64,000 bases of DNA from Escherichia coli (GCF_044647545.1 NZ_CP172818.1), one strand, 5' to 3'. Positions 3,804-7,734 are shown, counted from the first letter of the stretch. Notes: generated by a model not told the origin, from the letters alone. Translations and numbers: made by a program.

Positions 3804-4289
3804 ATGTCGCAACTGACCCATATCAACGCCGCTGGCGAAGCGCACATGGTGGATGTCTCCGCCAAAGCGGAAACCGTGCGTGAAGCGCGCGCCGAAGCCT
3901 TTGTCACCATGCGCAGCGAGACGCTGGCGATGATTATTGATGGTCGCCACCACAAAGGCGACGTATTTGCCACTGCGCGTATTGCCGGTATTCAGGCGGC
4001 AAAACGCACCTGGGATCTGATCCCGCTGTGTCACCCGCTGATGCTCAGCAAAGTTGAAGTCAATTTACAGGCTGAGCCGGAGCACAATCGGGTACGTATA
4101 GAAACCTTATGCCGCCTGACCGGGAAAACCGGTGTCGAAATGGAAGCATTAACCGCGGCCTCCGTGGCGGCGCTGACCATTTATGACATGTGCAAAGCGG
4201 TGCAAAAAGATATGGTGATTGGTCCGGTACGTTTGCTGGCAAAGAGCGGCGGCAAATCAGGTGACTTTAAGGTGGAAGCGGATGATTAA
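3804..4289 (+). CDS. moaC: Cyclic pyranopterin monophosphate synthase
   Basis: 161 aa ORF, expected length. Confidence 0.95.
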
Positions 4290-4528: not shown

Positions 4529-4981
4529 ATGGCAGAAACCAAAATTGTTATCGGCCCGCAGCCGTTCAGCGTAGGAGAAGAGTATCCGTGGCTGGCGGAG
4601 CGTGATGAAGACGGTGCGGTAGTCACCTTTACCGGTAAGGTGCGCAACCATAACCTTGGCGACAGCGTCAAAGCATTAACCCTCGAACACTATCCGGGGA
4701 TGACTGAAAAAGCACTGGCAGAAATTGTCGATGAAGCGCGTAACCGCTGGCCGCTGGGGCGCGTCACGGTGATTCACCGCATCGGGGAATTATGGCCGGG
4801 CGATGAAATCGTTTTTGTCGGTGTCACCAGTGCGCATCGCAGCAGTGCGTTTGAAGCCGGGCAGTTTATTATGGATTATCTCAAAACCCGCGCACCGTTC
4901 TGGAAGCGCGAAGCCACGCCGGAAGGCGACCGCTGGGTCGAAGCTCGGGAGAGCGATCAGCAGGCGGCAAAACGCTGGTAG
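4529..4981 (+). CDS. moaE: Molybdopterin synthase catalytic subunit
   Basis: 150 aa ORF starting 2 nt after moaD stop. Confidence 0.95.
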   Translation: MAETKIVIGPQPFSVGEEYPWLAERDEDGAVVTFTGKVRNHNLGDSVKALTLEHYPGMTEKALAEIVDEARNRWPLGRVTVIHRIGELWPGDEIVFVGVTSAHRSSAFEAGQFIMDYLKTRAPFWKREATPEGDRWVEARESDQQAAKRW

Positions 4982-4991
4982 TTTTTTGTTA

Positions 4992-5019
4992 GCCGGATAA
5001 GGCACCGCTGCGTCCGGCA
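4992..5019. repeat. REP (repetitive extragenic palindromic) element after moaE
   Basis: gccggataaggcaccgctgcgtccggc, typical REP palindrome. Confidence 0.7.
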
Positions 5020-5117
5020 ATTTCACCGCTCAGTATATGCGTTTACGCTGCGTCGATGCACAGCCTCATCATTTTGCAGTATCCTTAAGATATTCCTTAT
5101 ATCTTCAGGAGATCGTC

Positions 5118-5822
5118 ATGGACAGATTCCCACGTTCTGATTCAATCGTACAAACCCGAACTGGCCTGCAAACCTATATGGCACAGGTCTATGGCTGGAT
5201 GACAGTAGGCTTGCTGCTTACTGCGTTTGTTGCCTGGTATGCGGCTAATTCCGCGGCCGTTATGGAGCTATTATTCACCAACCGCATCTTTTTAATTGGT
5301 CTGGTAATAGCACAATTAGCTCTGGTTATTGTGTTATCAGCGATGATTCAAAAGCTGAGCGCAGGTGTAACGACGATGCTCTTTATGCTTTATTCCGCGC
5401 TGACTGGCCTGACGCTTTCCAGTATTTTCATTGTCTATACCGCTGCTTCTATCGCCAGTACTTTCGTCGTTACTGCCGGGATGTTCGGCGCAATGAGCCT
5501 GTACGGTTACACCACGAAGCGCGATCTAAGTGGTTTCGGCAATATGCTGTTTATGGCGTTGATCGGCATTGTGCTGGCATCGCTGGTCAACTTCTGGCTG
5601 AAAAGCGAAGCGTTGATGTGGGCAGTCACATACATCGGCGTGATTGTCTTTGTCGGATTGACGGCGTATGACACCCAGAAACTGAAAAATATGGGTGAGC
5701 AGATTGATACCCGCGACACGTCGAACCTGCGCAAATATTCCATTCTTGGCGCGTTGACCTTGTATCTGGACTTCATCAACCTGTTCCTGATGTTGCTGCG
5801 GATCTTCGGCAACCGCCGTTAA
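5118..5822 (+). CDS. ybhL: BAX-inhibitor-1 (TMBIM) family inner membrane protein
   Basis: 234 aa from internal Met (MDRFPRSDS...); multi-pass hydrophobic protein. Confidence 0.9.
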   Translation: MDRFPRSDSIVQTRTGLQTYMAQVYGWMTVGLLLTAFVAWYAANSAAVMELLFTNRIFLIGLVIAQLALVIVLSAMIQKLSAGVTTMLFMLYSALTGLTLSSIFIVYTAASIASTFVVTAGMFGAMSLYGYTTKRDLSGFGNMLFMALIGIVLASLVNFWLKSEALMWAVTYIGVIVFVGLTAYDTQKLKNMGEQIDTRDTSNLRKYSILGALTLYLDFINLFLMLLRIFGNRR

Positions 5823-5841
5823 TTCTTTTTTCACCATCAAT

Positions 5842-5868
5842 ATCCCGGCCTGGTGCCGGGATTTTTTT
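5842..5868 (+). terminator. Rho-independent terminator of ybhL
   Basis: cccggc-ctggt-gccggg hairpin followed by a T7 run. Confidence 0.8.
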
Positions 5869-6028
5869 CTTACTAAAAACGACACTTAACAAGTACCAGG
5901 TATAAAATATGCCTTATGGCCGAGCGGAAGTGTTTTCTGTATCCATAAATGCAAAAGTATTTTGTATGCGTGGTTTTAAATTTATTGATGGTGAATATTA
6001 ATGTTTTTTTCTAAGGACAACAAAAAGA

Positions 6029-6742
6029 ATGGAATCATTCTCACAAAATAGCAATAAATTAGATTTTCAGCACGAAGCCAGGATATTAAACGGCATATGG
6101 CTCATTACCGCTTTGGGTTTGGTGGCAACCGCAGGGCTGGCCTGGGGCGCTAAGTATCTCGAAATTACGGCAACAAAATATGATTCACCGCAAATGTATA
6201 TTGCTATAGGATTATTATTACTTTGTATGTATGGCTTAAGTAAGGATATCAACAAGATAAATGCCGCCATCGCAGGCGTAATATATCTGTTTTTAATCTC
6301 TTTGGTGGCGATTGTCGTTGCGAGTTTAGCGCCTGTATCTGCCATTATCGTCGTGTTCAGCACTGCGGGATCGATGTTTTTAATCAGTATGCTGGCAGGT
6401 CTATTGTTTAAATTTGATCCTGGTTCTCACCGTTTTATCATTATGATGACGTTGGCAGGGTTGGCCCTGGTAATCATCGTGAATGCCACATTAATGAGTG
6501 AACGACCCATTTGGGTAATAAGTTGCTTAATGATTGTCTTATGGTCAGGCATTATCTCGCATGGACGAAATAAGCTCCTTGAATTGACAGGAAAAAGCCA
6601 TAGTGAAGAATTATGGAGTCCGGTTCGTTGTGCTTTTATAGGTGCATTAACACTCTATTACTATTTTATCGGCTTCTTTGGGATTCTTGCCGCTATAGCT
6701 ATAACGCTTGTCTGGCAAAGGCATACGCGGTTTTTTCATTAG
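6029..6742 (+). CDS. ybhM: BAX-inhibitor-1-like inner membrane protein
   Basis: 237 aa hydrophobic ORF. Confidence 0.85.
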   Translation: MESFSQNSNKLDFQHEARILNGIWLITALGLVATAGLAWGAKYLEITATKYDSPQMYIAIGLLLLCMYGLSKDINKINAAIAGVIYLFLISLVAIVVASLAPVSAIIVVFSTAGSMFLISMLAGLLFKFDPGSHRFIIMMTLAGLALVIIVNATLMSERPIWVISCLMIVLWSGIISHGRNKLLELTGKSHSEELWSPVRCAFIGALTLYYYFIGFFGILAAIAITLVWQRHTRFFH

Positions 6743-6777
6743 CCGTAAATGCACATACTAAAGAACTTAACTATACT

Positions 6778-7734
6778 TCACATCGCCGCTTCATTTTTCG
6801 CCCGCAGCTTCTTCGCCTGGCTTTCCAGTACCAGATAGCAAACCAGCGCCAGCAGCAGCGGGATAAAGTAATACAGCACACGGTAAGCGAGTAGGGCGGC
6901 GATAATTGTGCCCTTGGATGTATGCTCCCCAGCCAGTAGCGCGATAAACACCGCTTCCAGCACACCAATCCCCGCTGGAATATGCACGATGACGCCAGCA
7001 ATACTACTAACCAGTAACACGCCCAGTACAAAGAAATAGTTCACGCTTTGACCAAGTAACAGCCAGATAATCGCCCCCATTACCATCCAGTTAACACTGG
7101 AAATCAGCATTTGGGCGAGGGCGAATTTCCATGAAGGCAGCACCAGTTTTTGTCCTTTGATGGTCATATGGCGGTGCTTCGCGAAAGCGCAAAACCACAA
7201 ATAAACCGCGATAATCATCAGTAAGCCAATGCCGAGAATGCGCAGCGTGGTTTGATCGACATACCAGTGGTCCGGCAACTCCACCACGCCTGCGGTAAAG
7301 ATAACCCCCGCTAGCAAAATATAGCCTAGCCAGTTGGTGGTAATACTGAGCGAAAAAATCCGCGTAATAGTGCTGCCCGGTAACCCCAGTCGGGAGTACA
7401 AACGATAGCGCATACCAATGCCGCCGACCCAGGTACTGAGTGTCAGGTTGAAGGCGTAGCAGATAAACGACACCAGCATCACCTGGCGCTTCGCCAGTTT
7501 GTGACCGCAGTAGAAACGGGCGAGCAGGTCGTAGCAACCGTAAATCAGATAACTGACGACCACCAGCCCGACCGCACTAAGCAGCGCAACGCGATTGTAG
7601 TCGCGGATGACCTTCCAGACCTCTTCCCAGTCCACTTTTTTGGCGTAGACCACCAACAACACAATCACCGCGATAAAAAACAGCCAGGTGAGGAGTTTCT
7701 TTGCTAAGCGCCAGCGTGGGTGTGATTTACTCAT
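6778..7734 (-). CDS. ybhN: Inner membrane protein (lysylphosphatidylglycerol-synthase-like TM region family)
   Basis: 318 aa ORF; start shares one nucleotide with the clsB stop. Confidence 0.9.
   Translation of the reverse strand: MSKSHPRWRLAKKLLTWLFFIAVIVLLVVYAKKVDWEEVWKVIRDYNRVALLSAVGLVVVSYLIYGCYDLLARFYCGHKLAKRQVMLVSFICYAFNLTLSTWVGGIGMRYRLYSRLGLPGSTITRIFSLSITTNWLGYILLAGVIFTAGVVELPDHWYVDQTTLRILGIGLLMIIAVYLWFCAFAKHRHMTIKGQKLVLPSWKFALAQMLISSVNWMVMGAIIWLLLGQSVNYFFVLGVLLVSSIAGVIVHIPAGIGVLEAVFIALLAGEHTSKGTIIAALLAYRVLYYFIPLLLALVCYLVLESQAKKLRAKNEAAM

Follow-up and report, generated by a model that had tools for sequence, protein, structure and literature searches.

Adjacent Bax inhibitor-1 family genes of Escherichia coli: a canonical ybhL and a divergent, probably accessory ybhM in a variable gene slot

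We analysed ybhL and ybhM, two neighbouring membrane protein genes within a 64,000-nucleotide stretch of an Escherichia coli genome (GCF_044647545.1, NZ_CP172818.1; the whole stretch is hereafter the window). It is highly probable that these are two separately transcribed inner-membrane genes of the Bax inhibitor-1 (BI-1) family with different roles, ybhL being a housekeeping gene of the channel type and ybhM an accessory gene that lacks the di-aspartyl sensor. The presence of the two genes and their family assignment are existing annotation and were already known. What is added here is the asymmetry between them, with ybhM a narrowly distributed, fast-evolving, AT-rich accessory gene whose product has no di-aspartyl sensor. 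The two genes are:

5118..5822, plus strand: ybhL, 234 amino acids, a canonical BI-1/TMBIM-family inner-membrane protein with seven transmembrane (TM) segments, in which Asp185 (TM6) and Asp218 (TM7) are kept.
6029..6742, plus strand: ybhM, 237 amino acids, a divergent BI-1-family membrane protein with seven helices, in which Gly179 and Tyr212 replace the sensor aspartates.

A reading made from the sequence alone, without database searches (the sequence-only reading), had named these genes ybhL and ybhM and described them as lying in tandem on one strand. Both open reading frames (ORFs) are indeed on the plus strand, and they coincide exactly with the RefSeq coding sequences of ybhL and ybhM in the E. 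coli ST648 chromosome NZ_CP008697, to which positions 4900-6950 of the window are 100% identical. The same interval was matched in 5,424 of the 5,426 complete E. coli genomes. RefSeq gives YbhL and YbhM one product name, ‘Bax inhibitor-1/YccA family protein’. The mechanical ORF of ybhL takes an upstream ATG, at 5037, as its start; position 5118, the annotated start, is preferred because an AGGAG Shine-Dalgarno sequence lies 5 nt 5′ of it and because published promoter hexamers fall inside the upstream extension.

Searches against Pfam PF01027 (Bax1-I; profile length 207, curated gathering score 34.1 bits) placed both proteins above the cutoff over the whole profile. YbhL scored 211.3 bits (E 1.7e-62, profile positions 1-207) and YbhM 65.3 bits (E 8.7e-18, positions 3-205), and pairwise alignment gave 25% identity over 151 amino acids (BLASTP E 5e-12). 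Homology of both proteins to the BI-1 family is thus far beyond chance, and assignment to unrelated families, named beforehand as the outcome that would speak against the sequence-only reading, did not arise in the hidden Markov model (HMM) search. The multi-pass architecture and similar size that it had proposed are borne out too, as a Kyte-Doolittle scan finds seven hydrophobic segments at comparable positions in each protein. The AlphaFold2 model of YbhM has seven helices (predicted local distance difference test, pLDDT, 91.0; predicted template modelling score, pTM, 0.87), and that of YbhL has seven long helices and one short one (residues 46-54; pLDDT 91.6). However, the picture of two similar BI-1-like proteins holds for the family only; it hid the fact that YbhM is divergent, taxonomically narrow and devoid of the signature aspartates.

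YbhL is the conserved, canonical, housekeeping member of the pair. Its E. coli and Salmonella versions share 87% identity, and compared with the K-12 allele it has 4 amino-acid changes and a ratio of nonsynonymous to synonymous divergence (dN/dS) of 0.028, showing that ybhL is under strong purifying selection. The solved bacterial TMBIM/BI-1 homologue is Bacillus subtilis YetJ (PDB 4PGR/4PGW), a pH-sensitive Ca2+ leak channel in which a di-aspartyl pair (Asp171, Asp195) is the pH sensor and holds the channel closed (PMC8589314). All six human TMBIM proteins keep the same two aspartates; when these are mutated, Ca2+ binding or conductance suffers, and so does function, in YetJ, BI-1, GAAP and RECS1 (PMC8589314). 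In an alignment of YbhL with YetJ (E 1.8e-8), the ‘YD’ motif of TM6 and the ‘LYLDFINLF’ motif of TM7 fall in register, such that Asp185 (AYDTQ) and Asp218 (LYLDF) line up with D171 and D195. Moreover, YetJ is the top structural match of the YbhL model, although as a control YbhL passed this comparison only loosely. By homology with YetJ, YbhL would most likely be a seven-helix bundle acting as a Ca2+/H+ cation leak, with a pH-sensitive gate formed by Asp185 and Asp218.

YbhM appears to carry the family scaffold, by its profile match, with both gating aspartates replaced. We took a census of the two sensor columns in a 66-sequence alignment of 47 canonical BI-1 proteins and 19 members of a YbhM-like clade. 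Aspartate is present in 40/47 and 39/47 of the canonical sequences, compared with 1/19 and 2/19 of the YbhM-like clade, and YbhM itself has Gly179 and Tyr212 at the equivalents of YetJ Asp171 and Asp195. Neither a phmmer search with YbhM nor a search of PDB sequences with a YbhM-clade profile matched any solved relative, YetJ included, and the YbhM model gave no convincing fold match to YetJ, which, given the loose pass of the YbhL control, is no evidence of a different fold. Since both gating aspartates are replaced, YbhM is probably not a pH-gated channel of the YetJ type. By sequence it is a family member, yet it fails one of the functional hallmarks and would not be a functional equivalent of YetJ-type channels. 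In a profile of the clade, A28, W39, G114, M116, F117, G144, N152, S165, W172 and G205 are invariant across genera.

The two genes are separated by a 206 bp spacer (GC about 0.39-0.42) that carries three transcription signals together with the region upstream of ybhL:

5057..5085, plus strand: reported sigma70 promoter of ybhL, TGCACA-17-TATCCT (Shimada et al. 2014, PMC3946193).
5842..5869, plus strand: intrinsic terminator of ybhL found by a terminator scan, with an 8-bp stem, a 5-nt loop and a U7 tail.
5879..5906, plus strand: reported sigma70 promoter of ybhM, ACGACA-16-TATAAA (Shimada et al. 2014, PMC3946193).

The terminator placed between the genes by the sequence-only reading is readily recognised as a rho-independent one, a GC-rich hairpin at 5842-5862 followed by TTTTTTT. 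Its RNA folds at -14.3 kcal/mol (z = -3.07), and 2/200 shuffled sequences fold equally well. Shimada et al. 2014 (PMC3946193) give each of the two genes a sigma70 promoter of its own, and the hexamer pairs of both are present in the window. Our own consensus scan found the ACGACA hexamer at 5879, as published for ybhM, and did not pick up the ybhL site at 5057-5085. Therefore, given a terminator between the genes and a separate published promoter for each, ybhL and ybhM are two transcription units and not an operon. When 4800-6950 was scanned against Rfam with permissive E-value limits, the only matches were sub-threshold ones on the terminator (SorX, Hrs1), and the alpha-proteobacterial ‘ybhL’ leader motif was not matched; therefore no riboswitch or leader is claimed.

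In composition and evolutionary rate ybhM also stands apart. Its GC content is 0.41, and 0.42 at third codon positions (GC3); in the seven other genes that were measured, GC3 ranges from 0.53 to 0.66 and is about 0.60 in most. It differs from its K-12 counterpart by 17 amino-acid changes, and a dN/dS of 0.14 for this one pair of alleles shows constraint, weaker than that on ybhL by a factor of about five. With a word index over 5.8 billion proteins, relatives of YbhM turned up essentially only in Escherichia and Shigella, at identities of at least 65%. HMMER, run exhaustively against 1.84 billion cluster representatives, contributed just a few more at 25-35% identity; across the searches, relatives beyond the 65% tier are 24-36% identical and come from Escherichia, Salmonella, Kluyvera, Superficieibacter and Pseudocitrobacter. 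In these searches the clade was thus detected in the Enterobacteriaceae only, and its members are 24-44% identical to each other, even inside one genome.

A number of points weigh against this division of roles. That the aspartates are lost is no proof that conductance is lost too, and 9/19 sequences of the YbhM clade keep a glutamate at the TM6 position. The case for a shared scaffold in YbhM consists of the Pfam match and the helix count, and the weaker constraint on ybhM is estimated from the single comparison with K-12. The link of the spacer to H-NS is a single ‘HNS’ flag in one published table (Shimada et al. 2014, PMC3946193). Lastly, we found no experiments on the function of YbhL or YbhM in the searchable literature.

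The local gene order is moaABCDE (plus strand), ybhL (plus), ybhM (plus), then ybhN, clsB and ybhP (minus strand), with ybhN convergent with ybhM across a 35-bp spacer. The border gene is:

6778..7734, minus strand: ybhN, encoding an LPG_synthase_TM domain protein, the conserved right border of the variable slot.

ybhN is the border gene in the E. coli, Salmonella and Pseudocitrobacter loci alike. We compared the interval between ybhL and ybhN (window 5823-6777) with the corresponding intervals of other loci (L005:3857-5523, L006:2347-5302, L008:2847-6802, L009:2818-5102 and L010). Depending on the strain, this slot holds from zero to six cassette genes. The window and K-12 have ybhM alone, and in 750/5,426 complete E. 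coli genomes a second YbhM-like gene, of 234 amino acids, lies between ybhL and ybhM. The extra 712 bp of H10 corresponds to this second BI-1-like gene, and an insertion sequence (IS) at this position was ruled out. Rarer E. coli have a third YbhM-like gene together with a DUF3969 gene and small unannotated genes, and up to six genes are found in E. coli GF4-3. DUF3969 genes recur in the slot (L006:4708-5064, L008:5208-5585, L009:4508-4864), and we found no mention of DUF3969 in the searchable literature. Haplotypes with one, two or three copies all keep the ybhL terminator, and their homology to each other stops just 3′ of it. One- and two-copy haplotypes share sequence to the end of this terminator and again from the ribosome-binding site of ybhM onwards, with unrelated sequence between. 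Therefore, these are alternative cassettes, and the idea that the one-copy spacer is a deletion scar of the two-copy haplotype was ruled out.

The same junction varies beyond E. coli. In Pseudocitrobacter corydidari four extra unannotated genes (143, 135, 151 and 161 amino acids) surround a YbhM-like gene in this slot (L013:4163-6784), and in Kluyvera georgiana a YbhM-like gene is followed directly by ybhQ, with ybhN-clsB-ybhP absent (L011:4150-6257). ybhL and ybhN are reported to be adjacent in Klebsiella pneumoniae (PMC8284424). Genes are gained and lost at the ybhL-ybhN junction, which is a small hot spot of this kind in the Enterobacteriaceae. Sequence divergence is raised over the same region, with nucleotide identity to K-12 at 93-95% across ybhL-ybhM-ybhN (5118-7734) and 97-98.4% in the flanks. 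Synonymous divergence (dS) from K-12 is 0.19-0.27 across these three genes, compared with 0.07-0.13 in the flanking moa genes, clsB and ybhP, and 4,176/5,424 E. coli genomes are just 90-95% identical to the window over 4900-6950. This suggests either old haplotypes or recombination tied to the variable slot.

We therefore picture ybhM as an accessory gene, AT-rich and with a promoter of its own. In this strain it is the sole occupant of a slot that, across the Enterobacteriaceae, gains and loses highly divergent YbhM-like genes as well as unrelated small cassettes. Our best guess is that YbhM acts by protein-protein contacts in the inner membrane and not by ion conduction, in a protective role that would vary between strains and be dispensable; this guess draws on the residue loss and the gene neighbourhood. 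In decreasing order of confidence, the candidate roles are immunity-like protection, a YccA-like modulation of FtsH, and none at all, with ybhM a relic.

The first of these is that YbhM-like proteins serve as orphan immunity-like proteins of the inner membrane, protecting against competitors' membrane-targeting toxins, for example pore-forming type VI secretion system (T6SS) effectors, a possibility that we raise tentatively and at low confidence. In Salmonella, a YbhM-like gene heads a three-gene AT-rich module, followed by genes for membrane proteins of 202 and 186 amino acids. The module is found collinearly at two loci, 3′ of ybhL and 3′ of guaA (L003:4001-5908, L014:5001-6900), and is tightly packed, with gaps of 23 and 7 bp at the ybhL locus and of 17 and 0 bp in the other copy. 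Gene by gene, identity between the two copies is 43%, 37% (E 4e-45) and 40% (E 7e-44). Each of the four downstream proteins gives a weak match to the NCBIfam model NF053812 ‘immunity protein Sip4’ over most of its length (E 8.2e-8, 3.4e-5, 3.5e-8 and 3.1e-4) and has four hydrophobic segments. Sip4 of Serratia marcescens is likewise a 4-TM inner-membrane protein, which neutralises the pore-forming T6SS effector Ssp4 (PMC12669606). Moreover, a cassette protein of 186 amino acids at the ybhN end of the GF4-3 slot (L008:6192-6752) scores 24.7 bits on Pfam SUKH-4 (PF14435; E 2.8e-5). An exchangeable, frequency-dependent function would fit the variation in copy number, the extreme divergence, the AT-richness and the raised dS across ybhL-ybhN. 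Together these observations suggest that the slot collects toxin-immunity-type genes and that YbhM-like proteins might share that functional class. A variable cassette slot with weak immunity-gene signatures has apparently not been described before.

However, this evidence is one of association, and YbhM itself has no match to immunity, defence or phage models. Scans with PADLOC and PHROGs likewise gave no matches for YbhL, YbhM or any of eight cassette proteins. The Sip4 scores (21-34 bits) fall far under the cutoff of 240 and concern hydrophobic proteins. When homologues of one Sip4-like protein were sought, Salmonella ‘hypothetical proteins’ alone were returned, which gave no independent confirmation of the link to Sip4. 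The GF4-3 protein is below the SUKH-4 cutoff of 25.5 bits and is unrelated to the Salmonella 202- and 186-amino-acid proteins. These two Salmonella proteins were also considered as degenerate BI-1 copies, and this was rejected at an hhalign probability of <1%. No toxin gene is present in the slot, and the window holds ybhM with no Sip4-like or SUKH cassette. The likeness of YbhM to Sip4 is one of neighbourhood, through the proteins of the Salmonella module; the two are not homologous, and no Ssp4-like effector is found nearby. We found no literature linking BI-1 proteins to T6SS immunity. In Superficieibacter electus (L012:5001-10275) a YbhM-like gene lies away from ybhL, 5′ of genes for an unannotated protein of 864 amino acids and a VgrG (Phage_GPD, 246 bits). 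The 864-amino-acid protein is widely conserved (Klebsiella, Kluyvera, Enterobacter, Pandoraea, Cupriavidus), bears the UniRef label ‘hydroxymethyltransferase’ and is not an evident effector. This adjacency was dropped as T6SS evidence, and it may be coincidental.

The further steps that this immunity reading takes are equally uncertain. The ybhL-ybhN slot could conceivably be an island that gathers immunity genes without their toxins. It is similarly doubtful, though worth stating, that the YbhM-like clade is an unrecognised class of BI-1-derived, sensor-less, exchangeable immunity-like proteins, of which the window would represent the minimal, one-gene island state. On the same speculative footing, the Salmonella members of the clade would belong to a mobile three-gene module with two Sip4-like homologues. 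If YbhM does protect against membrane-active toxins, this would give the BI-1 scaffold a bacterial role other than that of a channel and define a new class of orphan immunity genes.

An unlikely alternative, less favoured again, is that YbhM resembles its E. coli paralogue YccA in being a substrate or modulator of the FtsH/HflKC membrane protease and not a channel, buffering membrane-protein quality control under stress. YccA, like YbhL and YbhM, is an inner-membrane 7-TM protein of the BI-1 family. As summarised in PMC7876416, it is degraded by FtsH, interferes with it and protects against SecY jamming. RefSeq places YbhM with YccA by its product name, and a protein-binding role without channel activity would be compatible with the loss of the aspartates. 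However, yccA lies at another locus, outside the window. YbhM does not match the YccA equivalog model NF007765, on which YbhL itself reaches just 23.9 bits (cutoff 353). Moreover, a housekeeping partner such as FtsH explains neither the copy-number variation nor the 24-44% identity within the clade, and we found no interaction data. A paper on asa/TEGT (PMC6294744) was set aside as evidence here, as it concerns yccA and not the ybhL-ybhM locus.

The least probable of the roles considered, and one to which we attach little credence, is that ybhM arose as a tandem duplicate of ybhL and is now decaying, a silenced and functionless relic nearing pseudogenisation. Key residues are lost, the gene is AT-rich next to a spacer flagged for H-NS, and its constraint is weaker than that of ybhL. 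Truncated YbhM forms are common in databases, and disruptions are tolerated, as in laboratory strain RR1 (ybhM::IS5; PMC5379014) and in one strain with an IS91-linked deletion from the 3′ end of ybhL into clsB. This idea is nevertheless weakened because ybhM is intact, at a query coverage of at least 80%, in 5,373/5,426 complete E. coli genomes, because its dN/dS indicates purifying selection and because the clade keeps ten invariant residues; the confident AlphaFold2 model also speaks against it. A recent duplication of ybhL is likewise unsupported, as YbhL scores 39-43 bits against YbhM and other canonical BI-1 proteins score 35-56 bits, such that YbhL is no closer than the rest. Origin by duplication of ybhL is nonetheless plausible.

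With ybhL taken as the channel-type gene and ybhM as the sensor-less accessory one, the shared name ‘Bax inhibitor-1/YccA family protein’ masks the difference between them. YbhL can reasonably serve as a bacterial model of how TMBIM channels function. In YbhM both YetJ gating residues are missing, and therefore the channel annotation should not pass to it. The eukaryotic members TMBIM1-6, among them BI-1/TMBIM6, GAAP/TMBIM4 and RECS1/TMBIM1, have organellar Ca2+ and cell-death roles without direct bacterial counterpart, and YbhM differs from them too in having no di-aspartyl sensor.

Two further observations concern the moa genes upstream. In Pseudomonas fluorescens, loss of moaC was modestly beneficial under Ssp4/T6SS attack, as seen by transposon sequencing and with an in-frame deletion, and the authors give no explanation (PMC12669606). 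In the window, moaC (3804-4289) lies about 0.8 kb 5′ of ybhL; we regard this as a coincidence because the organism is a different one and the deletion was in frame. Lastly, RefSeq annotates a molybdenum-cofactor riboswitch 5′ of moaA in NZ_CP008697 (L002:247-391), which corresponds to about 2146-2290 of the window.

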